NCBI GenBank assembly: GCA_041687095.1
Contig: JAWLCQ010000004.1
Coordinates: 19,194-83,193 of the forward strand
Reading direction: 5' to 3'
DNA: 64,000 nt
Origin: Phycisphaerae bacterium
GTDB lineage: Bacteria > Planctomycetota > Phycisphaerae > SM23-33
The first letter of the stretch is position 1; each line of letters opens with the position of its first letter. Position numbers and translations under genes: made by a program. This document shows, one piece after another, positions 4,248 to 41,727 of this stretch. The notes beneath the pieces are model-generated. The model made no database searches. It worked only from the letters and a program-made list of their open reading frames with translations, and was not told the origin of the DNA.

Positions 4248-4457
4248 CCGTCCGCGCGGGCAACCGGTCCTGGACCCGACTGCTCGCGAGACAACGCCTG
4301 CCCAACGCCCCCGGACCGCGTCCGGGGGGTGACGCGGACACAGAGCGGACCCATACGCCCTGCACCGCTATCTCCCGACGGGCCCGGGGGCGTTGGTCTG
4401 TACGCAAACACGGCGGGAGCGTCAGAGGACCTCCGGGGGGATCCGCGGGATCCTGCA

Positions 4458-4486
4458 TTGACACTCGAAGCCTCTTGCCGTATCTC
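4458..4486 (+). promoter_or_regulatory. candidate sigma70-like promoter for the nucleoside hydrolase gene (TTGACA-17-TATCTC)
   Basis: Perfect -35 TTGACA at 4458-4463, a 17-nt spacer and a weak -10 TATCTC, about 60 nt upstream of the ATG. Preceded by a GGATCCGCGGGATCC palindrome. Promoter consensus for this phylum is uncertain. Confidence 0.25.
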
Positions 4487-4545
4487 TCTTCGATTCACGC
4501 GGGCCTGGGCCCGCGCAGAACGGGACAACCCTCAGGCCCACAGGA

Positions 4546-11884: not shown

Positions 11885-12173
11885 TAGGAGTGTGGTCCTT
11901 TCGGGTTGGGGGTTCTTCCTGTGGTCGTTCCGTGACATGCTGCATGCCTCGCAGGCTGACAGGCCCGGGGGCCCCAGGCCTCGCGGGGCATTTCCGGCGG
12001 CGTTTGACACCCGTGGCGGACAGCGTGTCGGCAAGCGGTTGACGGGTGAGGGTTCGTGGGCGATGATTGGCATCAGATCGGCGCATTTCCTTCCCTCCGC
12101 CTCGGGGTTGTGCGGGGCGGGCGGTTGGGCAGAGGGCGGCGGGCAGGGCGAGCGGGCGCATGGGAGCGAGTTC

Positions 12174-15100
12174 ATGGGCGAGGAAATCGATCTTCACGTT
12201 GGCGGCTACCACCTGACGGAGTCCATCGGCACCGGCGGGATGGGCAGCGTGTTCCGCGCGACCGTCGAGGCCGACGGCAAGCCCGTCCCGCGCGGCAGCA
12301 CCGTCGCGGTCAAGCTCCTGCACCCCCACCTGCGGACCATCCCCGAGTTTGTCCAACGCTTCCGACGTGAGGCCCATCTTGCGGCCGCCATCTGTCATCC
12401 CAATGTCGTCCGCGTCCTTGATGAGGGCGAGGACGACCGCAAGCACTACATCGTCATGGAATTCGCGCCAGGCCGAAAGCTCACCGATCTCCTAAAGGCG
12501 AACTCCCCTCTCAGTCCTCAGCAGACTATCGAGATCATGAGCCAGGTCTGCAACGCCCTCCAAGCGGCCCACTGTGTTGAGGACCCGGATGAGCCCGGGC
12601 GCATCCGCAGCCTCGTTCACCGGGACATCAAGCCTGACAACATCGTCATTCAGGATGTATCCGATCGCCCGTTTCCTACAGTCTCCGTCGCCGACGCCAA
12701 ACCTTCCGTTGCGCAGCTCCGCGTGAAGCTCCTGGACTTCGGGCTCGCAAAGGATGTTCAAAGCCTTTCGACTGCCCTTAGCCAGAGCGGACAGTCCCTC
12801 GGCACTCCGGCCTACATGTCCCCGGAGCAGTGCCGCGGGGAGGATGTGGACCAACGCTCCGACATCTACTCTCTTGGCGTCGTCGCCTATCACACGATCA
12901 CCGGCACGCAGCCATTCGCCGGCCCCACTACCGTCGCCTACGCCCAGCAGCATGCCGAGGAAATCCCCCCCGACATCCTCAAGCGCAATCCCCTGTGTCC
13001 GAATAGCCTCGCCGACTGCATCTACCGCTGCCTCGCCAAGGACCCCGCCGACCGCTACGCCTCCCCTGCCGAACTCCAATGCGATCTCGCCCGCATCGTC
13101 CGAGGCCAGCCCGTCGCACAGGTCCACCGGTTCCGCAGGAAGGACTCCTTCAACGGTCGCCGGGTCGCCGCCATCGCTGCCTGCACGCTTCTAGTCGCCG
13201 CGGCCGTCGCGGTCGGCGGTTGGATGCTGCTAACGGACACAGCGAGATCCGACCTCGCCCGGGCCATGCAGGAGGCCGAGGCCGCCGTCGCCGCACATGA
13301 ATACGGAAGGGCCAGGTCCCTGATGGAAGACGCGATCGCGGCCATTTCGAACCGGTCGGATCGCGATCAACTGATTGCCCCGGCCCAACGCCGCCTGAGT
13401 GCGATTGTGGCCCTGCAGGAGGATGAGCGGGCGAAAGAGGCGCGGTTGGCAAGGGTAGGGCAGCTCATGGGGGAAGCCCGGAAGTTGCTCGTGGAGGGAC
13501 GCTTGGTGGAGGCGGGGACTGTCATCCGGAGCGTTCTGGAACTCGACCCCGACAGCAAGCAAGGCCTGCTGCTGCAGAATGAGATTCTCCATCGTTTCCG
13601 GCTCGCCCAGGCGGCCCCCGTCAAAGTGCAAGCCGATACGGCTGTGGAGAGCCTACGGGCGATGGATCTGGCTCGAAGCGAAGGTTTCGAGGGCCTCTTG
13701 GAAGCCCTGGATGCCACCTACCGCTTGGCGGGGACGCTCTTCACGGAGAAGGATTATGGCCTGGCGATAGAGAAGTACCAGGAGGTGATCCGCGAATCTG
13801 ACCGGTTGGCCCGCCTGGAGGAGGAGCGGCAGCAAGCGAAGCGGGAACTGGCTCGGGCGCGGGACGCGGAGGATGCAGCTCTGCGAGACGGAGCCGAAGA
13901 GGAACCCGAGTCGCTGTCCGCCCTGGGGCGAGCCCGAAAGGCAAGGATGGCGGGACAGGGGCAATTCCAGAGCCAGCGCTTCGCCGAAGCCGCCGCGACG
14001 TGGCAGCAGTCCAGGGAGGGGTTCGACGAAGCCGGCGAGGCCGCAAGTGGCATTACACGCCTTCGAGACGAGGCGGGAGAAGCGAAGTCGGCAGCAGTTG
14101 CGGCGGAGTCTGCGGCGAGGGGCGCGGGAGCCGAAGGGCTGGAAGGCGCGGTGTCCATATGGTCATCGGCCTGCGCGAAGGCTGCTCGGGCGGAGGCCGC
14201 GTACAAGGCTCGGGAGTATGCGACCGCTGCGGCCGAATGGAAGTCGGCCGAGAGCACGTTCATCGCCGCTCGGGACCTCGCCACCTGCCTTTCTGCGGTG
14301 GCGGACGCCCGAGCGAAGTACCAGGTCACGTTATCCCGATGCGATCAGTCGCTCCTTTGCGAACATGGAGCAGTGGTATGGGAGGAGGTGCAGCAGATCC
14401 TCCAGACGGCCACGAGCGAGGGAAAGGACTTCAATGAAGCGGTGAAGGCCTACGAGCGAGCCGCAAGCCTTCTTCCGCAAGCCGTGACGGAGGCGCAAAT
14501 GGTTCAGGAGGAGGCTCGCTTCGCCTCGCTTCTTCTGGCGGCGCAACGAGCGGCTGAGGTCCTTCCGCCCTTGGGAAACGCGCTTAAGGCCGTGGAAAAG
14601 GAGACGCTGGAGTCCGGCCTGCGCGCCGTGCAGGGAGCCTTGGCGATTCGGCCTGCGGACACAACGGCGGCGGGTCTGAAGGACACACTGGAGTCCTATC
14701 TGGCTCTCCCAAAGGAAATCCAGCTCGAATTGGGTAACGGCGTGCGCATTCCGTTCGTGCTTGTCCCTGCCGGAAAGGCCACGATGGGCAGCTCCGAGAC
14801 AGAGGGGGATCGGAAAAGGGACGAGGGCCCCCAGCGCGAGGTGACGATCAGCCAGCCCTTCTACATGGGCGTCTACGAGGTGACGCAGGAGCAGTACGAG
14901 GCGGTGATGCAAGCGAAGCCCAGCTATTTCCGGGGGGCGAAGAACCCTGTGGACAACGTCTCGTGGCACGATGCGGTGAAGTTCTGCCGGGAGGTGTCCA
15001 AGAAGACGGGGCGCACGCTTCGTCTGCCCACCGAGGCGGAATGGGAGTACGCCTTTCGGGCAGGCAGCAACACACGATACCACTACGGGCAAGACCCGGA

Positions 15101-15440
15101 TGCACGCCGTTTGGGTGAATACGCGTGGTATTTCGGGAACAGCGACTCCAAGACGCACCCCGTGGGGGGTAAGAAGCCCAACGCCTTTGGCCTGCACGAC
15201 ATGCACGGAAACGTGTGGGAGTGGTGCAATGACCGCTATGCGGATTCCTACGCAGGGGGCAAAGAGACGGATCCGACGGGACCGGAATCTGGGGACAGCC
15301 GGGTGGTCCGCGGCGGTTCGTGGCTTAGCTTCTCGAAGGACTGTCGGTCAGCCAGTCGCTTCTGCCTGCTGCCGGATACTCGACTGTTCAACGGCGGATT
15401 CCGTGTGGTGTCCCTCGTTCCCGAGGAGGATGAGGAATAG
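12174..15440 (+). CDS. Ser/Thr protein kinase with a long helical/TPR-like linker and a C-terminal FGE-sulfatase (SUMF1/DUF323) fold domain lacking one catalytic Cys
   Basis: Kinase subdomains are present (GTGGMGSVF; VAVKLL; HRDIKPDNIV; DFGLAK; SPEQ). C-terminal FGE-domain motifs are present (NVSWHDA...; GLHDMHGNVWEWCNDRY; VRGGSW...FRVV). Start taken at MGEEIDLH (12174) rather than the ORF start 11892. Confidence 0.8.
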   Translation: MGEEIDLHVGGYHLTESIGTGGMGSVFRATVEADGKPVPRGSTVAVKLLHPHLRTIPEFVQRFRREAHLAAAICHPNVVRVLDEGEDDRKHYIVMEFAPGRKLTDLLKANSPLSPQQTIEIMSQVCNALQAAHCVEDPDEPGRIRSLVHRDIKPDNIVIQDVSDRPFPTVSVADAKPSVAQLRVKLLDFGLAKDVQSLSTALSQSGQSLGTPAYMSPEQCRGEDVDQRSDIYSLGVVAYHTITGTQPFAGPTTVAYAQQHAEEIPPDILKRNPLCPNSLADCIYRCLAKDPADRYASPAELQCDLARIVRGQPVAQVHRFRRKDSFNGRRVAAIAACTLLVAAAVAVGGWMLLTDTARSDLARAMQEAEAAVAAHEYGRARSLMEDAIAAISNRSDRDQLIAPAQRRLSAIVALQEDERAKEARLARVGQLMGEARKLLVEGRLVEAGTVIRSVLELDPDSKQGLLLQNEILHRFRLAQAAPVKVQADTAVESLRAMDLARSEGFEGLLEALDATYRLAGTLFTEKDYGLAIEKYQEVIRESDRLARLEEERQQAKRELARARDAEDAALRDGAEEEPESLSALGRARKARMAGQGQFQSQRFAEAAATWQQSREGFDEAGEAASGITRLRDEAGEAKSAAVAAESAARGAGAEGLEGAVSIWSSACAKAARAEAAYKAREYATAAAEWKSAESTFIAARDLATCLSAVADARAKYQVTLSRCDQSLLCEHGAVVWEEVQQILQTATSEGKDFNEAVKAYERAASLLPQAVTEAQMVQEEARFASLLLAAQRAAEVLPPLGNALKAVEKETLESGLRAVQGALAIRPADTTAAGLKDTLESYLALPKEIQLELGNGVRIPFVLVPAGKATMGSSETEGDRKRDEGPQREVTISQPFYMGVYEVTQEQYEAVMQAKPSYFRGAKNPVDNVSWHDAVKFCREVSKKTGRTLRLPTEAEWEYAFRAGSNTRYHYGQDPDARRLGEYAWYFGNSDSKTHPVGGKKPNAFGLHDMHGNVWEWCNDRYADSYAGGKETDPTGPESGDSRVVRGGSWLSFSKDCRSASRFCLLPDTRLFNGGFRVVSLVPEEDEE

Positions 15441-20713: not shown

Positions 20714-20832
20714 GCACCGCCTCCTTTCCCGCCACGCACCGTAGCGGCCGCCGCATTCTAGTCCGCCCGCGGCGGACGTTCCCATCTCAAGGAAATCCCA
20801 AGACGGCCAAAACCAGAAAGGGACCAGAAGAA

Positions 20833-20875
20833 AAGCCCGTCGGGGCCGGCGGTGAAGGCGGCCCCGACGGGCGGG
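20833..20875 (-). terminator. rho-independent-type terminator downstream of the giant gene (13-bp stem gcccgtcggggcc/ggccccgacgggc)
   Basis: Perfect 13-bp GC stem with a 12-nt loop, followed on the minus strand by a T-rich tract (ttttcttctggtccctttctggtttt). About 65 bp past the giant gene stop. Confidence 0.5.
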
Positions 20876-20937: not shown

Positions 20938-23900
20938 CTAGATCAGGGCCAGCAGGTCCACGACCTCCTCGTCGGCGGTGTCGAAGAGCTTTCGCGTGCC
21001 CGCCTCGAGCGTCTCGGACATCACGTCGGCCGAGCCGGGATCCTCGTGGGCCACACCCAGCACGTGGCCCAACTCGTGGCGGAGGACCGTCAACAGATCG
21101 ATCGCCCCGGCGGCGGGGGAGGTGTCCGTGGCGGACAGCCCTCCGGCGGTCTCGGTGGTGAACTCGGCGTTGTCGAGGGGGGTCTCGTCGATGAACCAGC
21201 CATAGCCGGCGGCGTCATCGTCGAGGTAGATCACGCCTCTGTCCTCGTAGGCCAGCAGGGATCCGCCCAGGTCGGTGATAACGAACCGGACACCGGCGAG
21301 GAGTTGGGAGAGGTCGGCGTTGAGGGCAGCTTCCCAGTCGGCGATGGCGGTTTGGACGAGGTCGTCGCTCGGAGCGTCGGAGAGGGTCACCCCGGTGGGT
21401 TCGGCCGTCGTGGGGGCCGTGGCGACCTGCATCGCCGCCTGCCCAAAGACCATGTACCCCAACTGCTCGGTGGTGTGGTTGCGCTCGGAGTCGCCGATCA
21501 TGTCCTCGTTCACGGCGAGGTCGATGTCCGTGGTGGTCACCGGGGCCGGGCCGTACAGCATGGCCCAGCCGCCGTCGGCGCCGTCCATGGCGTTCTGGCT
21601 CACCGTCGCCGACGAGACCGTCGCGAACCCGCTGATGGTGTAGCTGTACGGGGGCGTGTCGCTGATGCCCTGCACAGTGTCCGCTCCGAGGGCCGCCACG
21701 TAGTCCACGCCGTTGATGGTTCCGCTGCCAGATTCGATCACGATGTACCCGATGGTCTCATCGCTGCGGGTGGTGTCGGAGTCCTCGCCCACGTGCTTGC
21801 CGGTGCGAAGCGTCGTCGAGGTGGGCGGGGTGGAGGAGCTGGTTCCGCGGCACCAGAAGACGGACCAGTCGGTGTCGTTGTAGCTCATCACCTGCCCCAG
21901 GACCACGGGGGTGGTGTAGCTGTTGGCGTAGGTCCGGGATTGGCCGTTCCAACTGCTCTTGCGGTCGGTGACGGTGGAGGTGTACTTGACGGCCTCCATC
22001 TTCACCCCGTCGTTGGCGACGGTATAGACGCCCTCCTCGACCACCATGTAGTGGACGGTGATCCCGGTGACGTCGCCGGTCTGCCCATCGGCCCGGTCGA
22101 CGCGGACCTGGAAGCTGTTGCCCGAGGCGTTCTGCACGCGGGCGGCGATGGGAGGCAGCGTGCCGTTGTGCACCACCGTGCAGACCACGACCATCGAGTT
22201 GTAGTCGTTGGCGAGGTTCACGGTGGTCCAGCCGGTGTTGCTCACGGTGGTGACGACGCCCTCGAGGAGCTTCGGCCCGGCGGGGTCGTCGTCGGCGATC
22301 GTCACCGTATCACTGGACGGGGTGCCGATGGTGTAGGCGGCGTCGGTGGAGAGCGTGAGCACCACCGTCTCGTCGCCCTCGTGATCGGCGTCGTCGACGG
22401 GGGTGACGGTGATGACGGCCGAGCTGTTCCCATCGGCGATGACCACACTGCCGGTGAGGGTGGCGTAGTCGCTCGTGTTCGTGGCCGTCCCGCCGATCGA
22501 GTAGTACACGGTCAGGTCGCCGCTGGTCTGGTCCCGCGTGACGGTGAACTGCCCGGTCTCGGAGGACTCCTCGGCGGCGGAGGCGTCGGTGGCGGTCAGG
22601 GTGACGGTGGGGGTGTCCGACACGGTCCAGACGACCTGGGCGTGGCCCTGCTGGGGGTCGTACGTCTGGGTGCGGGGGGCGTCGAGGTAGATGGTCCCGT
22701 TGAGGGTCGCCTGGCTCTTGGCCTGGTTGATGGTGAGGGTGTACCCATTGAGGGCCAACTGCGTTCCGCCGGCCATGTCGAGGGCGCCGATCTCCTGGTT
22801 GCCCGTGAGCTTGACGATGCCCTTCTGCCGCAGCAGCAGTTCGGAGCCCGACAGGTCCTCGCTCGTCAGGACCGTCGCCTGGTCGTCGACGGTGTCCCCG
22901 TTGCGGTCGAAGCTGTCGATGATGACCTGGCCCTCGCCGCTCGCCTGGTCGCCCGTCTGCAGGTAGATCGTGCCCGCCGACGCATGGGCGCTGCTGGCCC
23001 CGCCGGTCCCGGGCTGGGCGTTGAAGCTCCCGGTGTACCCCGAGAACGTGTTGCCGGTCCCGGTGAGGACGACGGCGATCCGCCCGCCGCCGCCGTCGCC
23101 CGTGTTCGACCCGCCGGTGGAGTCCCCGCCCTTGGCGGCGACGCTGCCGGACCCGCTGATCGACGCGGTGGACAGGTACACGCTCCCGCCCGCTCCCGCC
23201 CGGGTGTAGGTCTGCAGCGGGGCGTTCACGTTGGCGAGGATGCTGCCGTTGATGGTGGAGCTGCCGGCGACGGTGAGGTAGACGGACCCGCCGCCCTCAT
23301 GCTGCCAGTCGCTCGTGCTGCCCCCGCCCATCCCGTGCAGCGTGGGGGCGAAGATCGAGTCGTAGACCGGCCCGCCGGTCCAGCTCGATCCCGTCCCGCC
23401 GAGCCCCCCGTGCGACGCCCCGCCGTTGTAGTTGGGGTAACCCGGGCGGTAGCCCTTGCTCGTCACGTCGATCGCCCCGCCCGACCCGATCGTCAGGTTC
23501 CCGCCCACGTCCACGCGGAGGCGGTACTGGTCGGGGTTGGCCTCGCTGTAGCCCTTGCCGTTAAGCTCCTGCGTCCACGTCCCCCCGCTGATCTCCAGGT
23601 CGCCCGTGATGCTCATGACCGTGAACGTGGCGGAGTAGGCGGAGTAGGTGGTCGGAATCGTCACGGTCCCCGTGTACCCGGACGCCTGCGCCCAGTCGCT
23701 CACGGTGTACGTCACGTCCCAGTACAGGTCCTTGGTGCTCGTGGCGTCCAGGGCGATGTCCACCCCGTTGGCGAGGGCGTCCCCGGCCCAGTTGTAGGGG
23801 TTGGAGGCGAGGGTGTCGTCGCCCTGACCGACCCACCAGGCGGTCCCGGCGGGAACGTCGTTGTCTTCGATAACGACCGTCGCCTCGCTGTTGGCCCCGA

Positions 23901-26900
23901 TCGTGTACCCCGTCCCGCTCGCCAGCGTCAACGTCAGCGGCTCGTCGGTCTCCTTCACCGAGTCGTTGACCGGGGTGATGGTGATCGTCGTGCTGCCCTG
24001 GCCGTTGGGAATCACCACGCTGCCGGTGAGCGTCTGGCTGTAGTCCCCGCTGTCCGCCAGGCCGCTCACGGTGTAGTTGACCGTCAGGTCCCCGCTCGTG
24101 CCCGTGCGGGTGATCGTGAAGACGCCGTCGTCCGGGCCCGTTTCCGATGCGAAGGCGTCGGTGGCGGTGAGGTTCACCTCGACGGCCCCGTCGTTGTCGG
24201 CGATGTCCACGGTGGCGTGATCGGGCGAGCCCACCGTGTACCCGCTGCCGGAGGCGACCGTCAGCAGCACGGTCTCGTCGGCCTCGGTCTCGGCGTCGTC
24301 CACGGGGGTGACGGTGATCGTGGCGCTGGCCTGCCCGTCCGGAATCACCACGCTGCCCGAGAGCGTCGCGTAGTCCGTCGTGTTCGTCGCCGTCCCGCCG
24401 ATGGTGTAGTTCACCGTCAGGTCCCCGCTCGTCAGAGCCGGGCCGCTCCCGCTCCGCGTCACCGTGAACGTCCCGGTGTCCGGGCCGGTCTCGGAGGCGC
24501 TGGAGTCGGTCGCGACGATGGAGACGGAGGGCACGTCGTCGCTGACGATCGTGACCGTGTCGCTCGCCGGGGAACCGATGCTGTACCCGCCCGAGGCGAG
24601 GGTGAGCACCACGGTCTCGTCGGCCTCGATGTCGCTGTCATCCACGGGCGTGACGGTGATCGTCGCCGAGGTCTGCCCATCGGGGATTACCACGCTGCCC
24701 GAGAGCGTCGCGTAGTCGCTCGTGTTGGTGGCCGTCCCGGCGATGGTGTAGTTCACCGTCAGGTCCCCGCTCGTCAGGGCGGGGCCGCTCCCGCTGCGGG
24801 TCACGGTGAACGTCCCGGTCGTCTGGCCGGCCTCGGTGGCCGTCGCGTCCGTCGCGGTGATCGCCACCGTCGGCACGTCGTCGCTGACGATCGTCACCGT
24901 GTCGCTCGCCGGGGAGCCGATGCTGTACCCGCCCGAGGCGAGGGTGAGCAGCACGGTCTCGTCGGCCTCGATGTCGCTGTCGTCCACGGGCGTGATCGTG
25001 ATGACCGCATTCGCCTGACCGTCCGGGATGGTCACGCTGCCCGACAGCGTCGAGTAGTCGGTCGTATTCGTGGCCGTCCCGGCGATCGTGTAGTTCACCG
25101 TCAGGTCCCCACTCGTCAGGGCGGGGCCGCTCCCGCTGCGGGTCACGGTGAACGTCCCGGTCGTCTGGCCGGCCTCGGTGGCCGTCGCGTCGGTGGCGGT
25201 GATCGTCACCGTCGGCACGTCGTCGCTGACGATCGTCACCGTGTCGCTCGCCGGGGAGCCGATGCTGTACCCGCCCGAGGCGAGGGTGAGCAGCACGGTC
25301 TCGTCGGCCTCGATGTCGCTGTCATCCACGGGCGTGACGGTGATCGTCGCCGAGGTCTGCCCATCGGGGATCACCACGCTGCCCGACAGCGTCGCGTAGT
25401 CGCTCGTGTTGGTGGCCGTCCCGGCGATCGTGTAGTTCACCGTCAGGTCGCCCTGGGTGGCGGTGCGGGTCACGGTGAACGTCCCGGTGGTCGGTCCGGC
25501 CTCGGTGGCGGAGGCATCCGTCGCCGTCAGCGTCACCGTGTCCAGGTCGTCGCTGACGATTGTCACCGTGCCTCCCGCGGGAGACCCGACGTTGTACGCC
25601 GCATCGGCCGACAGGGTGAGGACGAGGGTCTCGTCGGGCTCGATGGCCGAGTCGTCGACGGGGGTGATGGTGATCGTCGCCGACGCCTGCCCGTCGGGGA
25701 TGGTGATGGTCCCGCTGAGGGTCTCGCTGTAGTCCCCGCTGCTCGCCGTCCCCCCGACCGTGTAGCGGACCACCAGGTCCCCGCTGGTCGGCCCGGTGCG
25801 GGTCACGGTGAAGGTGCCCGTGGTGGGCCCGGCCTCGGTGGCGATGGGGTCGGTGGCCTCGATCGTGACGGTGGGCCGCAGGACGCGGGTGAAGACGATC
25901 TGCGAGCTTCCGACCTGCGGGTCGTAGGTCTGGGTCTTGGCGGCGTCGAGGTAGATGGTGCCGCTGAAGACCGCCTCCTCGGGGGCGGAGTTGATCGTGA
26001 GGGTGTACCCGCCCAGCAGCAGGTTCGTGCCGCTCGCCATGTCCAACCCGCCGATCACGGTATTGCCCATGAGCTTCCACAGGCCCTGCTGCCGCATGGT
26101 GACCTGGACCTTGCTCATGTCCTCCGCGAGGAACTGGTAGGCGTAGTCGTCCACGGTATCGCCGTAGCGGTTGGCGAAATCGATGACCAGTTCGCCCTGC
26201 CGCGGCCCCTCGGACCCGGCCTGCTTGTAGACCGAGCCCGCGGCCGCCTTGGCGCTGAACCCCCCGCCCGTGCCCGCCTTGGCGGACAGGGTCCCGGTGA
26301 AGTTGGCGAAGGTGCTCGCCGAGCCGGTGAGGATGACGGCGAGGCGTCCGCCGCCGCCGTTATTGGTGTTGGACCCGCCGAGGGAGTTCCCCCCCGCGGT
26401 TTCGATGGCGCCCGAACCGGAGAGGCTGCCGGTCTCGAGGTACACGCTGCCGCCCGCGGCCGCCCGCGAGTACGTCGCCGTCGGGGCGTCCACGTTCGCC
26501 AGGATGCTCCCGTTGATTGTGCTGGTTCCGTTGACGACGAGGAAGACCGAGCCGCCCCCCGAGAAGTTCGTCGCGCTGACCGACCCCCCGCCCGTGCCGT
26601 GGTAGAGCGGCATGAACGGATCGTCGTAGGGCGTGGCGGGGTAGCTGCTCCGCCCGCCGTGCGTCCCCCCGCCGTTGTAGTTCGGCTTGCCCTCGACGTA
26701 GCCCTTGCTCGTCACGTCGATGGACACCCCACTCGCCACCGTGAGGTTCCCGTACACCATGGCGTTGAGGCGGTACTCGTCGCGGCCGGACTCGCTGTAG
26801 CCCTTGGTGTTGGCGATATGCGTCCACTTGCCGCCCTGGAGATCCACGTTGCCCGAGACGTAGAACGTCGTGAACGTGGAGGAGAAGGTCGAGTACGTCG

Positions 26901-29900
26901 TGCCGATCGTGACCGTCCCGGTGTAGGCGGAGGTCTGGGTCCAGTCGTCGATGTTGTAGGTGACGTCCCAGACCAGGTCGGCGGTGCTGGTTCCGTCGAG
27001 CAGCACGTCCACCCCGTGGTCCAGGGCGCCCGACCAGTTGTTCGGGTTGCTCGCCAGCCCGTCGCCCCCGCCGTTGGTCCACGTGACCGTCGCGGCGGAG
27101 AAGTCGTCGTCGAGGATCCGCCCCGTGGCGCTGTTGGGGGCGCCCAGCGTGTAGGTGGGGCTGGTTGTGAGGGTCAGCTTGAGCTGCTCGTGCCCCTCGC
27201 GGGCCCCGTCGTTCACGGGGGTGACGACGATGTCAGCGTACAGTTCCCCGTCAGGGATGGTGATCGTCCCGCCCAGAGTCTCGCTGTAGTCGCCCGCGCT
27301 CGCGTTGCCGCTCACCCCGTACATCACCACCAGGTCGCCCGACGCGATGTCGCCCGGGCCGCTGCGGCTGATGCGGAAGCTCATCGTCCCGTTGCCCGCC
27401 TCGCTGCCCGAGGCGTCGGTGGCGGTGATGGAGACGACCGGCTTGTCGTCGCTGGTGATGTTCACCACCCCGCTGTAGGGCGAGCCGATCTGGTAGGCCG
27501 CGTCGGAGGCCAACTGCACGCTCACCGACTCGCTGCCCTCGATCTCATCGTCGTCGATCGGGGTGACGGTGATGACGGCCGAGTTCTGCCCGCTGGGGAT
27601 CACCACCGATCCGGTCAGCGTAACGTAGTCGCTGCCGTTCGTCGCCGACCCCCCGATGGTGTAGTACACCGTCAGGTCCCCGCCCGTGAAGCTGCGGGTG
27701 ACGGTGAACGCCCCCGTCGCCAGGCCCGCCTCGGCGGCGGTGCTGTCCGTCGCCGACAGCGTGACGGTCGGAATCCCGTCGTTGTCCCCGATCGTCACGG
27801 TCCCGCTGATGACGGCCCCGCGGGCGTAGGCGTCGTCCTTGGCGAGCGTGAGGATCAGCGTCTCGGGGCCCTCGACCTCCTGGTCGTCCACGGGCGTGAC
27901 GGTCACGACCACGGAGGACTGCCCGTCGGGGATCACCACGCTGCCCGTCAGCGTGGGGGTGTAGTCGCCGCTGCCGGCCGTCCCGCCGACCGTGTAGTGA
28001 ACCGTCAGGTCCCCGCTGGTGCCCGTGCGCGTCACCGTGAAACTGCCGGTATCGGTCCCCTGCTCGTGGGCCGAGGTGTCGGTGGCCTCCAGGGTGACGG
28101 TGGTCCAGGTGCCCGTGAGCACCACGCTGGCGCCCTGGATCTCCAGGCGGCACCCGCTCCAGCCCGTCGTCCCGTAGTCGAGCACCACGCCCGAAAGGTC
28201 CGGGGCGGTCCCACTGAAGGTGAACAGGACGTGGTCCTCCGTCACGAAGCCCCCGTCGTCCACCAGCTTGAGCGTCCAGGTGCTGCCGCCGTAGGGCAGC
28301 GTGACCACGCCGCTGACGGAGATCGAGTCGCTCACGGTGTCGCCCAGGGAGCACTCGTAGGTCGCCCCGTTCTCCAGCGTGAGGTCCCCGGTGATGGACA
28401 TCGCCCCGGTGGCGCTTCCGGGGGCGATCGTCCCACCGCTCGCCACCGTCACGCTCCCGCTCACCGCCCCCCCGCCCGAGAGCCTCAGCCCGCTGGCGAC
28501 GGTGACGGGCCCGACGAGCGTCCCGCCCGTGTTGACCGTGACGTTCGCGTTGAGGGCGTCGGTAACGCTGGCCGTCAGCTTGCTGCCGGACTGGACCGTC
28601 ACCGGGATCCCGCCCAGGCCCCCGGTGTAGGTGACCATCATCTCGCCCGTCCGCGTCCCGTCCCCGACGATCCACTCGCTGATGGCGTTGGAGTACGCGG
28701 GGGCGGAGCTGTCGAGCACGAAGCGGCCGCGGCCCTGCCCGTCGAGGACGCGCCCGACCACCTTGTTCCCGCCCGTGAGCACGAACGTCGGGCAGTACGT
28801 GTCCAACCCGAGCAGCAGCCGCTCCTCCGACCCGTACGCGTTGCCCGCCGAGAGGAAGACCATCTCGGTGAACCCGTTGCTGCCGTCGACGTTGATCGTG
28901 CCCTGCTGCAGGCGGCGGGTCACCTCGCTGGTGCTCGTGCTGAACGCGCTGGTCTGCCGCGCGATGCCCATCCACGGCGAGCCGTTGCCGATGTTCAGCG
29001 TGAAGGCGGGATCGTTGAAGTTGTTGCCCAGGCCGAACAGCAGGTCATGGGCGGTTCCGAGGTTCTGGATGGAGCTGGTGCTGACCGTGGTGTGGCAAAC
29101 CACCGCGCCCGTGGACAGGATGGCCTCGGGCGTCGTCGGGCTCCCGCTGAAGCTGCTGACGCGGTAGACCGACCCGAGTTGCGCGCTGGACCCGCGGATC
29201 TGCCCGAACTCCGAGACCGTGAAGCGGTCGGGCGTGCTGGACCATGTGCCCACCAGGTTGATCGTCCCGTGGTCCTCGGCGGTGATCCCCGCCGTCACGC
29301 CCCCCACGGCCGTCTGGGCGCCCCACGTGTAGCTCACCAGCCCCCCGATCCCGCGGACGGTCACCGGGCCCGTGCCCAGGGCCCCGGCGACGGTGGCGTT
29401 GAGTTCGGTCACGCGGCGCTGCCCGGAGACGTGGTCGACGAGGAACCCGCCCGAGAAGTTGGGCTGGGCGGCGGAGAGATGCATCTGCGTCCCGTACGTC
29501 ATCGCCCGCAGCGTCACCAGTCCGCTGCCCTGGAGCTGGTCGGCGTCGTCGAAGACGATGTCGTCGCTGTTGGCGTAGAACGTCGCCCCGCCCTCACCGA
29601 TGGTGACCGTCCGCCCCGACGCGGGGTTGAAGTCCCCCCCGTTCGTGCCGATGCTCACCAGCACCCCGCCCCCGAGCGTGAGGTCGTTGGCGCTGTTGCC
29701 GAAGATCGTGTCCGCCCCGGCGGTGCTGTACAGGAACGTCCCGCCGCTGATGGAGATGGGACCGGTGAAGTCGCTGAGGGTGTTCCCGAAGGCGTAGGTC
29801 CCGCCCCCGAAGAAGTTCACCCCGCTCGCCGTTCCGCTCACCGGGCAGGTGATCGTGTGCGTCTTGCCCGAGCGGGCGTTGACGTTCAGCGTCCCGTTGC

Positions 29901-32900
29901 TGAGGATCAGCTTGTATGTCCCCAGGATGCTGAAGCTGTTGAGGCTGTCGATCGTCACCCACCCGACGGTCTCGTCCTGCGTGTCCAGCGTAACGCTGGC
30001 CCCGCTGGAGAAGACGGCGACGTCATTGGGCCCGGGCACCTCGCCCAGGTCCCAGTTGGTGTAGGTGGACCAACTCCCCGTCCCGCCGATCCAGTGGAAG
30101 GTGCGGGTGTCGTTGTCGGCGAGGGTGATCGTGCCCGTCTCCGGGTACGCCAGGTCGTAGTTCGCCGTATCCAGAAGGGTCAGCGTCAGGTACTCGTCGA
30201 TCTCGGGAGCGGCGTCGTCGATGGGGGTGACGTCGATGTAAACATAGCGCTCGTTGGCGGGGATGGTCACGCTGCCGGTGAGGGACTCGTAGTAGTCCCC
30301 GCTGGCGGCCGTGCCGCTGAGGGAGTAGCTCACCGTCAGCGGACTGCCCGTGGGCCCGGTGCGGTAGACCATGAACCGCCCGCCGTCCTCATTCTCCTCC
30401 GAGGCGTCGGGGTCGATGGTGATCAGGCTGACCTGCTGCGTGGCGGGCTGCTCGTAGGAGGTGAACTCCCACGCGCCCCCGACCTGGGTGAAGTTGACCT
30501 TGGCCCCCCCGGGCAGGTTCACGGTGATCGTGCCCGACCCGTAGGTGACGCTGTAGTCCGCCCCCGCCACCGGCAGGTCTCCGGTGAGGTCGTTGAGCGG
30601 GAGCATCACGGTGACCAGCGGGGTGTTGGCGTTGGCGGTGTAGTCACCGCGGACCTTGTACCACTGCACGCCCATGCGGTCGAAGTACCACGAGCCCTCG
30701 AAGTCCGTCGGCCCCGTGGCCGTCAGCGACGCCGCCGGGCCGAACGTGCGGAGCAGCATCCGCCCGTTGTTGCCCTGGATGACGGCCCCCAGGCCCCCAT
30801 CAATGGTCGAGGCCGCGAAGCCCGCCTGGTACTGGGCCGTCACCACCCCGCTGCCCGAAGCGACGATGTCGTCCAGCAGGATGAGCGCCTCGCCCTGCAG
30901 CTCCTGCTGCGTCATGACGAACACCCGGTGCGCCCGCGTGGCCGCCCCGTTGGCGTAGGCGTCCGTGGTGTCCATCACGAACCCACGGTATCCGGCGGCG
31001 GCGTTCTCGAAGCTGCTGAGGATCGTCGCCATCGGCGTGTTCGAATCCGTCACGCCATTGCCGTCGATCAACGGGATGCTGTGGACCGTCTGGTCCCCGT
31101 CGCTGGCGTTGCCCTGGAAGTAGCCCGGGTCGATGAGGTAGGCCTCCTCGTTCGCCTGGACGACGAAGCTGCCTTTGTCGTACTGCTTGTGGTGCCCGTA
31201 GCGGTGCCCCCCGATCGCCGAGACCACCATGTCCGGGTAGAAGTCCGACCCGTCGGTGCGGATCGTGACGCCCTGCGTATTGTTGTCCAGCACGACCTTC
31301 GTGGCGATGGTGGGGAAGCTCGACGGGCTCGCCGTCGCGTCCCGCCACAGGAACCCCCAGGCGACGTACGGGTCGCGGACGTCGAGGTTGTTGCGGTAGT
31401 AGCTGGAGATGAGCCCGTCGGCGTCGGCGGCGATGCGGGAGGCCATCTCGTCCGCCAGCCAGCGGTACAGCCCGTCGTTGAAGCGGGCGCCGAAGTCCGC
31501 GCAGATGGTGAAGCCCGTCAGGAACGGCTGGGTGTCCCCGAAGCTCTGCATCCCGGTGACCTTGTCGCCCGCGAGCAGGAACTCGACGTAGTCCCGCATG
31601 TTCGACAGCGACGGCGCCGTCAGCAGCCCCTGGTGCGAGCCCGTCGCCTGCTCCAGCGCCTTGGCGAAGTACAGGTAGTACCCGAACCCGTAGTCCCAGT
31701 ACAGCGAGCCCTCCGGGCACCCCCCGTCGACCATGAACCCCTTGTCGATGTAACTGTTCTCCAGCAGGTCGACCGCCCAGTTGATGGCGTAGACGCTCTC
31801 GGTGTACATGGTGTGCTTCATCACCAGGCCGGACATGCCCGCCACCCCGGCGGCGACGACGACGGTGTTGGACCCGGGGTTCCCGTACCACCCCCACGTG
31901 CCCTCGTCGTCGGTGAGCAGGTCGGAGAAGTAGCCCTCGAACCACCCCCGCTCCGTCGCCGTCAACTCGGCGGCGAGGGCGTTGTAGGCCTCGGCCATCG
32001 CGGTCACCCGGCCCACCGCCACCTGCCCCTGCTGGCTCACCCAGCCGATGGTGTTGGCGACGTAGTCGACCTCCCGCATCAGCCGGTCACGGTACTCCGG
32101 CTTGCCCGTCAGCAGATACCCATAGAGGCTCGTCACGATGACCGAGCCGTTGGAGTCGAAGCTGTTGATCAGGCCGGTGGAGAGGTGCTTCTCCGCGCGG
32201 TCGAGGATGGGCTGAACGTAGTCGGCGAAGGCGGGGTTGGCCGCCTTGGCCTTCAGCGCCGCCACCCCCGCGTCGCCGAACCACGGGCTCACGTACGTCG
32301 CGTGATACCCGAACTTCGGGGACCCGCCGAACGTGTTGCCGCCCGTGGCCGCCGCGATCGTCGCCAGCCCCACCGTCGTCCCCCCCGCCGGAACCGTGAA
32401 CGTCGCCTGCCGGGACGACACGATCGTCACGTTCGTCGCCGCCGAACCGTTGACGGAGAACGTCGTCGTCGCCTCGAACCCCGCCCCGAAGACGGTGATC
32501 GTCACCCCCCCGTTCAGATGCGCGTTATCCGGCGTGCAGCTTGACAGGTAACGCCCGTAGGCGACGCCACCGTCCAGGACCGCCGACAGCTCGTTGGGGT
32601 TCACCACCTCCAGCGAGTAGATGCCGTCCGCCGCCGCCATCGCCGGGAGCGTCACCGTGAGCTGCGTGGAACTGTTGAACGTCACGCCCGCCATCGCCGT
32701 CCCGCCGATGCGGACCTCGCAGCCGTTGACGAAGTTCGTCCCCGTCACCGTGATCTGCGAGCCGCTCCCCAGCACCGCCGGGCCGCTGTAGCCCGCAACC
32801 GTCGGCCGCAGGCCTACCGTCAGCAGGACGGTCACCTTCATCGTCTGCGACCCGTCCGTGACGGTGATCGTGCCCGTGTAGCTGCCGTTGGTGAGGCTGG

Positions 32901-35430: not shown

Positions 35431-36030
35431 GGCGTGCTCCTTTGCCCAGGTTGGTGGGCGCGGGGAGGGGTCCCTCCGCGCACACGATAACTGCAGTTGC
35501 ATTCCCTTGGCTCGCCACACCGACAAGGGACCACGCGGACAGACCGCGCGACACCCGCCTCCGCCGGGAGGGGATACGGACGAGACTGTCCCAACCCGAA
35601 CCCGGCCGACGAACCAACCAATTGTGCTCCCGCGCCCGCTTCAGGGACGAGAGCGCCAGACAGGACAAGATCGAAGCGACAGCAAACGAACGGTGTCGGG
35701 CAGGCAATGCGCCCGACGACATGCCAGCACCCTTGAGGATAACAGCACCCCGGATAGCGTCAAGCGAGCAGCAACGAGATAATGTGCGAACGTAGAATAC
35801 TCGCGGCTGAATGTGCAGGAATAGCACCCCCGCGCACCCGGCTGCGCTTCGCTCCGCCCCCTGCATGCCCTACACACTCCGCCCGAAAAAGGGGAACAGG
35901 CTCCGCGGCTGTCTGGCGGTGCCTGCCCCCCGGCGGTTCGCCTGCATGGGCTCGAAAAGCGGGACAGGCACCTGCGCGGCGAACAGCAGCCGCCCTGGCC
36001 CCAGTGCCCATTCTCAAAACCGCTGCTCCG

Positions 36031-37368
36031 CTACCGCTGGTAGATCGGGACGATCTGGTACGCCGGGGTCAGCGCCAGGATCGACAGGGCGGTGGTGTAG
36101 GCGGGGCCGCTCCAGTGGTCGCTGTCGATGACCCCGCTCCGCCGCGGCGGATGGACCCAGGCGCCCTGGTCGTTCTGGTTGGCGAGGAAGATCTCGGCGA
36201 GCTGCGAGTAGAACCGCCGCCAGTGCTCCCCCCCGAGTTGGAACGTGCCCTGCGAGGCGTGGTACATCGCGTAGAAGTACCGCTCCGCCCCCGGGACCGT
36301 GCTGCCGTAGGAGGCGGGGTTGTTCGCCAGGATCCAGTCCCCCGCCGCCTTCGCCACCGGCAGCCCGTGCCTCCCCCCCATCGCCAGCGCCAGCATCCCC
36401 GCCCCCGCCATCGCCCGGTTCGGCCGCTCGGGGGTCTGCGGGGCGTAGATGAACGTCCCGTACGACGGGACGAAGCACCGCCCCACGAACCCCGCCGAAT
36501 CGTCCACGCTCTTGACGGGCACGTCGAACCCGGCGTTCTCGGCCGAGCGGAGGAAGCACATCATCCAGCAGGTGACGGACAGGTCCGAGTCGCACTCCCC
36601 GAAGCTGCCCGGAACGATGTACCGCCACGCCCCGCGGTCCAGAACGCGGCGCTTGGGCTGCTGGTACTGCAGGTCGATGGAGTACTTCAGCGCCCGCTCG
36701 ACGGCCGGTCGGATCCGCAGCGCCCGCTCGCGGTCCGTCATCCCGTAGACCTCGGCGAGGAAGATCCCGGCGATTCCGTGGCTGTACGTCGAGTGGGTGT
36801 AGCGGAAGCGGGAGAGCAGCCCGTCGGACTGCTGGGAGTCCAGGACGTAGTCGATGGCGCGGTTGAGGTGCTCCCCGTAGGGCCCCTGCCCCGGGACGTG
36901 CCCCGCCGCCAGCAGCGCCATCCCGCACAGCGCGGTCACGCCCGGCTGGGACTTGGAGTTGCCCGACTGGAACTGCCCATCCCGAAGCTGCTGCGTGACG
37001 AGGAACGCCAGCGCCCGCTCGACGGACTGGTCCACCCGCCGCCACGTGAGGGCGTCGACGGCGTCCTGGGGGGCGGACTGCGGGGGCTCCTGCGCGAGGG
37101 CGGACGAGGCGACAGACAGCAGGAAGAGGAGGGCAACCGCCACCACCCCAGGTGCGCGAGGCGCGAGCGGGGAGGCAGTGGGGCAATTTCCAATTTCCAA
37201 TTTCCAATTTCCAATTGGTTTGAAGACTGTTCCACAAACCGATTTCCACCGCAGAGAACGCGAAGATCGCAAAGGAGACTGGGCGTAGACAAAGGGAGTC
37301 CCACTCCCCCTCTGCGGCCGTTGCGACCTTTGCGGTGGGTTCTGAAGCAGTCTCTTGGCGGGCTTCAC
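36031..37368 (-). CDS. secreted prenyltransferase/squalene-oxidase-repeat (terpenoid cyclase-like alpha/alpha toroid) protein; start codon uncertain
   Basis: Repeated QxxDGxF/W-type motifs (QLRDGQFQSG, SQQSDGLLS, NQNDQGAWV). Hydrophobic signal-like segment VVAVALLFLLSVASSALAQ. The track start at 37368 is a GTG. A (CAATTTC)n repeat lies between that start and the signal peptide. Confidence 0.6.
   Translation of the reverse strand: MKPAKRLLQNPPQRSQRPQRGSGTPFVYAQSPLRSSRSLRWKSVCGTVFKPIGNWKLEIGNCPTASPLAPRAPGVVAVALLFLLSVASSALAQEPPQSAPQDAVDALTWRRVDQSVERALAFLVTQQLRDGQFQSGNSKSQPGVTALCGMALLAAGHVPGQGPYGEHLNRAIDYVLDSQQSDGLLSRFRYTHSTYSHGIAGIFLAEVYGMTDRERALRIRPAVERALKYSIDLQYQQPKRRVLDRGAWRYIVPGSFGECDSDLSVTCWMMCFLRSAENAGFDVPVKSVDDSAGFVGRCFVPSYGTFIYAPQTPERPNRAMAGAGMLALAMGGRHGLPVAKAAGDWILANNPASYGSTVPGAERYFYAMYHASQGTFQLGGEHWRRFYSQLAEIFLANQNDQGAWVHPPRRSGVIDSDHWSGPAYTTALSILALTPAYQIVPIYQR
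37184..37216. repeat. heptanucleotide microsatellite (CAATTTC)x4 plus a partial unit
   Basis: Perfect tandem heptamers, AT-rich in a roughly 70% GC background, in the 5' region of the prenyltransferase-like gene. Confidence 0.9.
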
Positions 37369-37371
37369 GGA

Positions 37372-40300
37372 TCACTCTCCTCTCGCGTCGGGGTCGGTCT
37401 CGACGGTGTCGGCGAGGCGGCGGTAGTAGTCATCGATGGCGCGGCGGTACTGTTCGGGGGGATCGGCGGAACGGCCCTGTTTGAGCCCGTCGCGGAGGCG
37501 GGAGACAAAGAGGTTCCACTTCTTTCGCCGCGCCTCGACGAGGGTCTTCTCCCAGGTCTGCAGCTCGACGCGTTTCCAGGCGTCGAGCTTGTTGCGGATG
37601 GACTGGGCAAGGTTCTGGGCGTTCTGCCCGGTCTGCTGAGCGAGGGCGGAGGCGGCGGCCATGGCGGACCCGGCCCCGCTGCCCGCGCCCGATCCCCCGC
37701 CCATCCCCCCGCCCTCTCCCGGGTTGTTCGGCATCCAGTCCTGCATGACCTGGATGTTCAGCCGCACGCCCGCCAGGCCCAGCAGTTCGGCCGCGTCGCG
37801 CTCGTGCTGGAGCATCCGCAGGATGGCCTCCAGGTCCGGGGCGATGGGCGGCTGCGCCCCGCGCATCCGTTCCTCCAGGAGCGTCAGCAGGTCGTCGAAG
37901 ATCTGCTCCGCCAGGGCGAAGGCGTCGACGGTGGATTGCTGGATGCGGTGGGCGTCGTCGAGCTTGCCCTCGTGCAGGGCAGAGGCGGTCTCGGAGTGCA
38001 GCTTGGCGATGTCCTCCTTGACGAGGCGTTGGAGGTCGTCGGCCTTGGTGGGGATGGGGGGGTCGGCGTCGGCGAGGTTATAGGCGACGTCGAGGAGCTT
38101 CCAGGCGAGGACGGCGGTGTCCTCCTCGAGGAGGATCAATTGGGCGGTGGCGATGGCGGCGAAGTCCTCGGTCTCGAGGGCCTGGAGGCGGGCGACGAGG
38201 GCTTCCTGCTCGCGGAGCATGCGGAGGGTCTCGCGGACGCGGCGGTCGGCGTAGATGGCGACCTCTCCGTCGTTGGGATCGGAGAAGGCGACGGTGTCGG
38301 CGGCGGTCCCCAGGAGGCGCATCTCCTCCAGGAGCTTCTCCGACAGCTCCAGGGCCTTGTTGGGGTCCGCGGGGAGCGTGGCGGCGAGTTCGCCGGCGTG
38401 CTGGGCGACGCTCTTGGCGAGGGCGGCCATGGCGTCGGTGGGCTCGATGGCGAGCGTCGACTGCCGGGGTCGCCAGACCACCGCGTTGTCGTACAACTGG
38501 CTCGCCGCCTGGGCGAGCTGCGCCTGCTCGGTGGCGATGTCCCGGGCGTGCTTGTCGAGGAGGGGCTTGCGTTTCTCGGGCGTGTCGGCCGACTGCCAGG
38601 CGGCGGTGTCGGCGAGCAGGGCCTGCTGGCGGCGGGCGAGGAGCGTGAGCTGGTCGCGGAGGGTGTCGGCGGACTGGCGCTGCATCGCCATGAACCGCCG
38701 CATGAGTTCCGGGTCCTCCGCGAGCAGCCGGGCGAGTTCCTCCATGAGTCTCCGCAGGTCCTCGTAGTACTTCTGGACGGCCTTGGCGAACTCGTCGTCG
38801 ACCTCGACCATCTTCCCGGTCCGCGGGTTGATGCGGTTCCGCTGCGCCTGGAGGAAGGCGTTCATGTCCTCGACGAGGATGCGGTGCATCTTCGCGATGT
38901 GTTCGAGATCGTCGGCGCGCTTCTCCTCGTTGGCGATCCGCTCATAGGCCTTGGTGAGTTCGACGAGTTTGGAGCGGGCGCGGCGGATGTGGAACAGCGC
39001 CTGCGTGAGGGGCTCGGCCATCTCGGCGGGGCTCTTGGTGAGCTTGCCCGCCGCGTCGAGGTTCTCGGCGGCGGGGACGACGTCGGAGATCCCGATGTCC
39101 TCCAGTTGCAGGGAGATCATGGCGTAGGGCGTGTTGGCCGCCTTGTGCTTGAGTTCCTCGATGAGCTTGGCGGCGGATTGGAGGCGCTTTCGGCCGCCCT
39201 TGAGCAGCGTGCCCTGCTCGGCGGTCCACTTGGGGAGGGACGGGACCGCGGTGTGCAGGGCGGTGGTCGCCTCCTCGGCGGCGGCGAGTTCGGTATCGAG
39301 GGCCTTGAGGTAGCGGGCGATGTCCAGGCGGAGCTTCTCGCGCTTCTGGGCGTCGTTGTGCTGGGCCCACTCGTCGATCTGGATGCGGTGCTTGGGCGAC
39401 TCCGCGCGCGGGGGCTTCCCCCCGGGCAGCGATCGCATCTGCATGTCGTTGGGCGGGGGCGAGTTCTCCGGGGCCTGGGGGTCCTGGGGATCCCGCTCGC
39501 CCCCCGAGGTCTGCGAATCCCGCGAGTTCGGATCGGTGCTGCTGGAGTTCGGGTCCTGCTCCCCGCCCGGGGGGCAACTGCTCCCGCCCGAGTTGGGATC
39601 GGAGGGACTGCTCGATTGCGATCCGCTGCTGCCCGAGTTGGGGTCGGACGGGCTGCTCGACTGCCCCCCGCTGCTGGAGTTCGGGTCCTGCGGGTTGCCC
39701 GACTGGCTGTTACCCGAGTTCGGGTCGGAAGGACTGCCGGACTGCCCGCTACGGGAGTTGGGGTCCGACGGGCTGCCCGATTGACCACTGCGCGAGTTCG
39801 GGTCAGAGGGACTGCCCGATTGGCCGCTACGGGAGTTGGGGTCCTGCGGGTTCCCGGGCTGCCCCCCCTGGGAGTTCGCGTCCTGCGGATCGCCCGACGC
39901 GTTCGATTGGCCGGAAGGGGACAGCTGCGGGTTCCCGTTCTGCCCCGACTGGGAGCCCTGATTCCCGACTGCGTTGGGGTCCTGCGGACCGCCCTGGTTG
40001 GGGTTCTGCTGCGTCAGGTCGGTGGGGTCCTGCGGGTCACCCTGCGTGCCCCCGCGCGTGTCGCCCTGGGTGGACTGGACGGCGTCGCGGGCGCGGAGGA
40101 CGTACTCCACGCGGTCCCCATGCTTCACCTGCAGCGCCTGCAGGTCCAGGTTGACCGCCCCCGCCATCTGCAGGGGCGGGGGCAGATTGGGGTCGGGGTC
40201 GAGGGACTTGAGGAAGGTCCGGGGCTGCTCTCCCTCGCGGGAGATGGTGACGGCGAGTTCGAGCCCGAGGATCCCGAAGTCGTCCTGCGCCTCGTAATGG

Positions 40301-41720: not shown

Positions 41721-41727
41721 CATGTCT

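Follow-up and report, generated by a model that had tools for sequence, protein, structure and literature searches.

The closest described relatives of the peptidase module considered here are the matrixins (M10A / PF00413), especially bacterial karilysin, and, at a greater distance, snapalysin (M7), the small neutral protease of Streptomyces. Snapalysin is a compact metzincin that lacks structural metal sites. The matrix metalloproteinases (MMPs) have sites for structural zinc and calcium among their defining features (PMC12587646). Giant proteins, thousands to tens of thousands of residues long, abound in Planctomycetota, rhizobia and cyanobacteria and are almost wholly uncharacterised. A 36,806-residue Chlorobium protein and other giants carry a LEPR-XLL motif at their N-termini (preprint 10.64898/2026.03.19.712371). 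The stretch of DNA analysed here (the window) comprises 64,000 nucleotides of a Phycisphaerae bacterium (Planctomycetota; contig JAWLCQ010000004.1, positions 19,194 to 83,193), has a G+C content of 69.3% and contains on its minus strand a giant open reading frame (ORF) of 4,862 residues, counted from the first TTG. As judged from sequence comparisons and a structural model, the last ~165 residues of the encoded protein make up an entire metzincin catalytic domain of compact build, nearest to the matrixins (M10) and in second place to snapalysin (M7). What is new is the very large, uncurated family of matrixin/snapalysin-like modules capping giant proteins to which this domain belongs, the biochemistry itself being ordinary.

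The zinc-binding sequence HELGHVLGVAH occupies residues 4817-4827 of the giant protein (21046-21078, minus strand) and is directly followed by a glutamate codon at 21043-21045. The earlier note on this DNA, made from the sequence alone, had read HExxHxxGxxH and a following Glu at this position, and both the motif and the flanking residues it quoted agree exactly with the translation. It had also placed an ADVMS segment 8 residues further on with only about 35 residues remaining; the methionine concerned, M4836, in fact lies 9 residues past the third His (H4827), and the remainder is right when counted from that His (35 residues to the stop codon) but not from the Met, after which only 26 residues follow. 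The translation ends ...IDLLTVLRHELGHVLGVAHEDPGSADVMSETLEAGTRKLFDTADEEVVDLLALI*, and a terminator-like hairpin just beyond the stop codon indicates that the giant protein really ends here, at the true 3' end of its gene. All six signature residues, H4817, E4818, H4821, G4824, H4827 and M4836, are intact in this copy. The giant protein contains a single HExxH, where its composition predicts 0.02, and the corresponding expectation for HExxHxxGxxH within it is 3e-5; the six frames of the window hold only one HExxHxxGxx[HD], the expectation for HExxHxxGxxH being 0.018. As these expectations lie far below the one motif observed, a chance origin can be excluded, and the motif is conserved in homologs.

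Conservation was assessed in an alignment of 27 homologs (35-56% identity) retrieved with the last 180 residues (A1), in a domain-only alignment of 34 sequences (A2) and in 195 domain copies from 170 proteins, with individual positions counted over the 186 copies that possess HExxH. The HExxH motif is kept in 186 of the 195 copies and is invariant in the 27 closest homologs, as are the G and W of DAAGYGWF and the DL of DLLTV in A1, whilst the Gly at +8 and a downstream L..G.R motif are nearly invariant there. Across the larger set, Gly is present at +8 in 178/186 copies and the Met-turn methionine in 166/186. The third ligand position (+11) is more variable, being Asp in 116/186 (62%) and His in 49/186 (26%), that is, D or H in 165/186, with Ser in 13 and Glu in 4; in A1 the copies with Ser at +11 often carry Asp or Glu one position earlier (+10). 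Just 6/186 copies have Glu at +12. The retention of three His plus the Glu, which had been put forward as a check, therefore holds for HExxH and fails for the third His. The family consensus reads ...AIxxW...DAAGYGWFVDxTP...DLLTVVxHELGHVLGLx[D/H]...DLMxxxLxxGxRRLP, and its HExxHxxGxx[D/H]...M...LxxGxRR signature is consequently of the snapalysin/matrixin type rather than the astacin type.

An AlphaFold2 model built on A1 (predicted local distance difference test, pLDDT, 87.8; predicted template modelling score, pTM, 0.84) arranges the domain as a strand (AMQV), helix A, five more strands, the HExxH helix, the Met-turn and a short terminal helix, and its top 10 matches in a Foldseek search of the PDB are all zinc metallopeptidases. 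The isolated C-terminal segment (142-200 residues) matches Pfam Matrixin at 26.1-26.7 bits (cutoff 24), and the same profile is matched by 33 of the 34 A2 members; a scan of NCBIfam gave no specific model for the C-terminal region. When the single sequence was searched against the PDB, karilysin was the best match, confined to the zinc helix. The A2 profile returned karilysin (E=2e-6), MMP-11 (2.5e-5), fragilysin (3e-4) and snapalysin (1c7k/4hx3; 2.4e-3), along with a second, non-significant match to MMP-11 at helix A (0.8 bits). Profile-profile alignment (hhalign) with five MMP/karilysin catalytic domains gave 96.8-96.9% probability and E values of about 1e-10 to 3e-10 over ~110 collinear columns, extending from helix A as far as the stretch that immediately precedes helix C. 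Within these columns the family's AIxxW in helix A corresponds to MMP AxxxW, LGxA to LAHA of the edge strand, IxxDxDAAGYGWF to HFDxDExW, zinc helix to zinc helix, DLM to ALM, and GxRRLP to the MMP segment preceding helix C; by eye, the terminal EEVVDLLALI also matches the MMP 'DDIxGIQxLYG' helix. Because the module is collinear with MMP domains and its post-Met tail is of MMP-like length (26 residues, against 28 in MMP-3), it is a full-size domain of ~165 residues and not a remnant.

The metzincin-type zinc site with a real Met-turn that had been proposed for this C-terminus is upheld by the retention of HExxH and by the alignment of the methionine with the MMP/karilysin Met-turn, and the structure prediction that had been suggested gives a peptidase-like fold with metallopeptidase neighbours. 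'Metzincin' was the correct designation. 'Minimal' was wrong, since ~165 residues make a full-size domain whose 26-residue post-Met tail matches the length of the MMP C-terminal subdomain, and so was 'astacin-like', as discussed below. The relationship to matrixins also has limits. None of the His/Asp ligands of the MMP S-loop, which bind structural zinc and calcium, is conserved in the aligned columns, where the sole invariant His residues are those of HExxH, and no PRCG of a Cys-switch occurs anywhere in the giant protein, which has no Cys after residue 4559; the Cys-free stretch takes in ~140 residues upstream of the domain and the domain itself. Given the lack of S-loop ligands and of a Cys-switch, together with a family-specific insertion described below, the module is termed matrixin-like and not a canonical matrixin.

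Taken together, sequence and model make it probable that the module is a matrixin-like zinc endopeptidase, extracellular and held in place as the terminal part of a giant protein of LEPR-XLL type. By analogy with metzincin chemistry, H4817, H4821 and H4827 would bind one catalytic Zn2+, E4818 would polarise and activate a water molecule, and M4836 would pack under the site. As there is neither a structural Zn/Ca loop nor a Cys-switch propeptide, latency, if any, would be achieved through tethering or export. The giant protein is presumed to be extracellular because its Calx-beta, BACON and lyase-like modules and its LEPR-XLL-type N-terminus point that way. The peptidase may then act in trans on proteins near the fibre, alongside the lyase-like, BACON and Calx-beta modules, with neighbouring giant proteins as possible further substrates. 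This role in trans is the favoured one, albeit tentatively; it is preferred to a one-shot self-cleavage in cis because strand beta-I directly follows the preceding domain, leaving no free linker to enter the cleft, and because the protein also bears polysaccharide-lyase-like and glycan-binding modules. A number of points weigh against this account. In the context of the whole protein the Pfam Matrixin match falls to 20.8 bits, under the cutoff of 24, and it spans only profile positions 102-143 of 159, corresponding to the zinc helix and Met-turn; the MMP/karilysin reference sequences used for hhalign, and the MMP lengths, were entered by hand rather than drawn from a database. The third ligand varies across the family and a few copies are without HExxH. 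No secretion-related gene lies beside the giant gene in the window, and the choice between action in trans and self-processing was made by inference only.

Several other explanations of the module can be envisaged, of which membership of the astacin family (M12A) is the most readily dismissed. The literal string HExxHxxGxxHE is present, as the earlier note had emphasised, and weak profile matches to BMP-1/tolloid extend over the zinc helix (E about 0.02), but M10 matches are better by about four orders of magnitude, the Pfam Astacin profile reaches 12.2 bits where its cutoff is 22.5, and the Glu following the third ligand is a rarity within the family. Moreover, RxDRD is absent, as is SxMHY with its Tyr: in the window protein the third His is followed, as HE, by DPGSAD, and the Met-turn reads DVMSE. 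An astacin-family assignment is effectively refuted. A non-catalytic module, whether a folding nucleus that binds Zn or Ca, an element for secretion or anchoring at the C-terminus, or a pseudo-peptidase used for binding, is improbable. It would suit the extreme C-terminal position, where type-1-like secretion signals occur, and the protein end itself, in which an acidic residue is followed by hydrophobic ones (VVDLLALI), with similar endings in homologs; this ending may resemble the motif of acidic plus hydrophobic residues found at the very C-terminus of some substrates of type 1 secretion. HlyD-type genes are also linked in some lineages, HExxH has been lost in some tandem copies and the third ligand is variable. 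Nevertheless, modules situated N-terminally or internally are misfits for a C-terminal signal, and the conservation of the catalytic Glu and both His in 95% of copies, and of the Met-turn in ~89%, is the pattern of an enzyme and not of a purely structural site; given the conserved Glu, a non-catalytic role is unlikely. Very large proteins that end in an HExxH peptidase toxin domain have been described (PMC3482391), and with this precedent, and one homolog-bearing protein annotated 'polymorphic membrane protein', the module could be viewed as the toxin of a polymorphic-toxin-like protein aimed at competitors. This is very improbable: a Pfam scan of the giant protein found no RHS, filamentous-haemagglutinin or pre-toxin modules, the gene downstream encodes an oxidoreductase dependent on flavin adenine dinucleotide (FAD) and not a small immunity protein, the module shows conservation, not polymorphism, and is found at N-termini and in tandem as well, and no small immunity-like neighbour recurs across phyla, the recurrent DUF3467 gene being part of an export-like cassette.

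The most serious competitor is a peptidase for self-processing, shedding or maturation, which would cut its own or a sister giant after export and so trim a terminus, release the fibre or fragment it. Comparable tasks are performed, by unrelated mechanisms, by the MARTX cysteine protease domain and by LapG/LapA. That the module forms a constant terminal cassette on giants with widely differing passengers, with no clear stand-alone secreted version seen, would fit such a role, as would the paralogous giants within one genome that each have their own copy (CBDDFU01, CAZJRB01), the placement of modules at either terminus, in tandem or internally between passenger blocks, the frequent company of a LEPR-XLL N-terminus, and the linkage of ~14 of 80 loci to a DUF3467/GAF-HlyD/M50-HlyD cassette. 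No conserved candidate cleavage site was found, however, and the conserved 'pLxAA' stretch that precedes helix A, for which a role as cleavage site or propeptide was weighed, is better explained as the structural strand beta-I. The export cassette is absent from the window, and LEPR-XLL proteins without the module exist, as do cyanobacterial module-bearing giants without LEPR-XLL. Self-processing is accordingly a possibility of rather low probability, and a broader proposal, that the module is the self-acting maturation or shedding peptidase of thousands of giants, coupled in some lineages to an undescribed export apparatus formed by this cassette, is less probable still. An obligatory pairing of LEPR-XLL and module, with the module serving as leader peptidase, was rejected, as each is found without the other.

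An exhaustive profile search recovered 12,240 cluster representatives (50% identity) at E<=1e-3, 4,656 of them at E<=1e-30, and a scan of GTDB species representatives gave at least 540 loci, none more than 55% identical to the window copy. The best of these loci are mostly from Planctomycetota (Pirellulales, Planctomycetaceae/Gimesia, Gemmatales, Isosphaeraceae, Thermoguttaceae); others come from Bradyrhizobium, Mesorhizobium, Labrenzia, Burkholderiales, Nostocales, Geomonas and other Desulfobacterota, and further ones from Acidobacteriota, Verrucomicrobiota and Chloroflexota. Members sit chiefly at the ends of giant proteins but also N-terminally, internally and in tandem. The host ORF extends more than 2,000 residues upstream, past the fetched flank, in 53 of 82 loci. 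The tail after the third ligand is at most 60 residues long in 27 loci, mainly planctomycetes, and longer in 48 (61-120 residues in 11, 121-400 in 32, more than 400 in 5); many of the short-tailed homologs finish, like the window protein, in a ...(V/I)Dx(L/V)F.. helix. In Nostocales the module is near the N-terminus, for example in a 10,429-residue 'polymorphic membrane protein' on Calothrix brevissima plasmid1. Other members carry passenger domains of diverse adhesin type (cadherin-like, Big_5/9, SdrD_B, FlgD-Ig, Golvesin_C), and the full-length form of the closest relative (P0171, 3,633 residues) shows significant likeness to the window protein in the module only, at 45% identity over 159 residues, beta-I strand included.

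Some proteins carry 2-4 module copies, as tandem pairs or in N-plus-C arrangements, and the genomes CBDDFU01 and CAZJRB01 have three module loci each, every paralogous giant gene with its own copy. Tandem pairs are found in P0028, P0031, P0033, P0037 and P0041, and in several of them one copy is without HExxH, so that by sequence such pairs are an enzyme plus a pseudo-enzyme; in P0028 there are two such pairs, and none of the four copies has lost the motif. The possibility that short homologs on long contigs are stand-alone enzymes was rejected, the genes upstream being same-strand fragments of broken giant genes; one such homolog (P0001) clusters with the 3,633-residue protein. Annotated plasmid records name module-bearing proteins after their repeats or as hypothetical, never as peptidases, RefSeq/GenBank names following Ig, CARDB, PKD or DUF4347 repeats, and the protein database gives no informative names. 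Literature searches found no description of the module.

The start of the giant protein in the window is likely the ATG at 35433, which would give 4,831 residues. Its N-terminal region reads ...LFLESLEPRLLLTA, and the LEPR-XLL model (NF012209, NCBIfam, a motif of ~24 residues) scores 14.5 bits on it, under the cutoff of 17. Within the family, a LEPR-XLL N-terminus is present in 23 of 63 long proteins and in ~18 of the 29 host ORFs from GTDB whose N-terminus is visible, and in a few the module directly follows the motif. Directly before the peptidase module lies a domain of ~250 residues (residues ~4440-4690, ~21480-22200, minus strand; ...GWTTVNLANDYNSMVVVCTVV...ERNHTTEQLGYMVFGQA), which has no match in Pfam or NCBIfam and whose last strand continues straight into the first strand of the module. 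Further features of the protein are two long paralogous segments, starting ...TWTNGGGDGLASNPNNWSG... and ...AWWVGQGDDTLASNPYNWAGD..., and a tandem array of 342 nucleotides x 4.3 (85% matches; 24247-25701, minus strand) that encodes near-identical Calx-beta units of 114 residues and points to recent intragenic expansion. The coordinates of the principal features are collected in Table 1.

Table 1. Features of the giant gene and its C-terminal module, in window coordinates
Feature	Position	Strand	Remarks
Giant protein, domains	20938-35526	-	Pfam: pectate-lyase-like beta-helix, BACON_2, heparinase II/III-like, 11 Calx-beta; C-terminal metzincin-like module
LEPRLLL motif, LEPR-XLL-type N-terminal signature	35353-35373	-	residues 52-58 from the TTG
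Matrixin-like metzincin catalytic domain (by sequence and model)	20941-21435	-	residues 4698-4862, ~165 residues, beta-I to helix C; AlphaFold2, hhalign, Pfam
Strand AMQVATA (predicted beta-I)	21415-21435	-	equivalent 'pLxAA' segment conserved in homologs
Helix A DDLVQTAIADWEAAL	21322-21366	-	15 residues; aligned with MMP helix A motif (AxxxW)
DAAGYGWF, family hallmark	21193-21216	-	A, G, G and W invariant; aligned with MMP 'HFDxDExW' region
Zinc-binding helix motif HELGHVLGVAHE	21043-21078	-	H4817, E4818 (predicted general base), H4821, G4824, H4827 (third ligand)
Met-turn methionine M4836	21019-21021	-	aligned with karilysin/MMP Met; Met in 166/186 family copies
LEAGTR, window form of LxxGxRR(LP)	20992-21009	-	Arg (R4845) invariant in A2; aligned with karilysin/MMP segment before helix C
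EEVVDLLALI, predicted helix C, protein end	20941-20970	-	lower confidence, pLDDT about 67
Terminator-like GC-rich hairpin and T-run	20821-20873	-	~65 nucleotides past the stop codon

The downstream neighbour of the giant gene is the FAD-dependent oxidoreductase gene mentioned above. Upstream, on the same strand and after a gap of ~490 nucleotides, three unannotated ORFs are followed by a BatA/VWA-DUF58-MoxR set; none of these neighbours is secretion-related or immunity-like. The three ORFs abut one another (36014-37375, 453 residues; 37372-41679, 1,435 residues; 41728-44565, 945 residues; minus strand) and have no known domains, and the Bat/MoxR-type operon comprises BatA/VWA (about 44562-47105), DUF58 (46832-47743) and a MoxR AAA+ ATPase (47906-49075), also on the minus strand. 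A plus-strand ORF of 3,366 residues (35782-45882) has no Pfam match and overlaps four minus-strand ORFs, namely these three and the abutting BatA/VWA; with the G+C content as high as it is, the plus-strand ORF is probably an antisense artefact.

Elsewhere in the family two kinds of neighbourhood recur, both of which were sought in the window and neither of which is present. The cassette already referred to consists of a DUF3467 gene (PF11950), a GAF+HlyD adaptor and a Peptidase_M50+HlyD fusion lying on the same strand beside the module gene, downstream in L003, L008, L020, L032, L036, L041, L043, L051, L054, L061, L070 and L075 and upstream in L034 and L049. Its lineages are Burkholderiales, Mesorhizobium, Labrenzia, Geomonas, Desulfobulbaceae, Desulfomicrobium, Bremerella and Blastopirellula, and one possible role for it is the dedicated export of these giant proteins. 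At ten loci of Bradyrhizobium and other Hyphomicrobiales (L016, L035, L039, L052, L058, L059, L073, L074, L076, L082) the module gene is followed by three tandem phage-tail-collar genes (PF07484), and the giants so linked have tails of ~120-190 residues with H(H/V)DL(I/L)V-like ends.

The remainder of the window includes two tandem acetolactate-synthase-like genes dependent on thiamine pyrophosphate (48-1847 and 1961-3718, plus strand), which form a direct repeat with 1,871-nucleotide spacing; their identity, 79% in one block of 300 nucleotides and 99% in another, indicates recent tandem duplication or partial gene conversion. A Ser/Thr protein kinase-FGE-sulfatase fusion of 1,182 residues (11892-15440, plus strand) and a BlaR1/M56 peptidase-domain protein of 1,519 residues (50279-54838, minus strand) are gene content typical of Planctomycetota, a phylum to which the MoxR-DUF58-BatA operon, the LEPR-type N-terminus and the best matches also point.

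The identification matters chiefly for the giant proteins themselves, a recurrent but unannotated end-module of which gains a testable predicted identity as a stripped-down matrixin-like zinc endopeptidase with H or D as third ligand. A count from Pfam put bacterial 'MMP' sequences at 1,677 (PMC12587646), against the 12,240 clusters of modules at 50% identity. Provided that they are active, these modules would amount to a major reservoir of extracellular metalloproteases that has gone unrecognised, and they would offer a route to studying the processing or shedding of giant surface proteins or their use as enzyme-bearing fibres. Should self-processing prove to be their role, they would represent a new and widespread principle by which giant surface proteins of bacteria process themselves. 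As existing records name the proteins after their repeats and not after a peptidase, a dedicated family model is called for.

Among the systems with which the window protein can be compared, the LEPR-XLL giants (NF012209, e.g. Chlorobium chlorochromatii Cag_663/665) share a LEPRxLL-type start, giant size and repetitiveness, but the Chlorobium giants have different C-termini. ADAM sheddases and serralysin-type proteases of the type 1 secretion system are metzincins that are tethered at or near the surface, or exported by a HlyD-type system, and act on neighbouring proteins. The analogy to them is functional only, without membership at the level of sequence, and serralysins combine an N-terminal protease with a C-terminal RTX region. 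The mini-zincins/minigluzincins (Acel_2062, selecase) are very small HExxH scaffolds, and selecase and 3e11 are among the Foldseek matches; at ~110 residues, however, they are without the metzincin arrangement of Met-turn and C-terminal subdomain, the match is partial (TM-score 0.3-0.5), and Pfam gave no match linking the module to them. The motif HEXXHXXGXXD is among the points discussed for Acel_2062 (PMC3890501). Astacins (M12A, PF01400) share the metzincin clan and, with the window copy, the literal HExxHxxGxxHE string. Snapalysin comes closer, since its HExxHxxGxxD is the consensus of the module family and its segment after the Met-turn is similarly short. It is nevertheless a stand-alone secreted enzyme, whereas the module is part of a giant protein, and it has Asp at +11 where the window copy has His; the likeness is weaker than that to M10, and Pfam M7 (PF02031) has no match in the window protein and matches 3 of the 34 A2 members at E<=0.01. 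It is with the matrixins, and bacterial karilysin in particular, that the module shares HExxHxxGxxH, the Met-turn and the order of elements over ~165 residues; they give the best matches by sequence, profile and profile-profile comparison, and both domains stop directly after helix C. The module family departs from them in a ~25-residue insertion before the zinc helix, DAAGYGWFVDxTP...EF (DxTPxDDxEF...AAG), in its mostly Asp third ligand and in being embedded at the ends of giant multidomain proteins.

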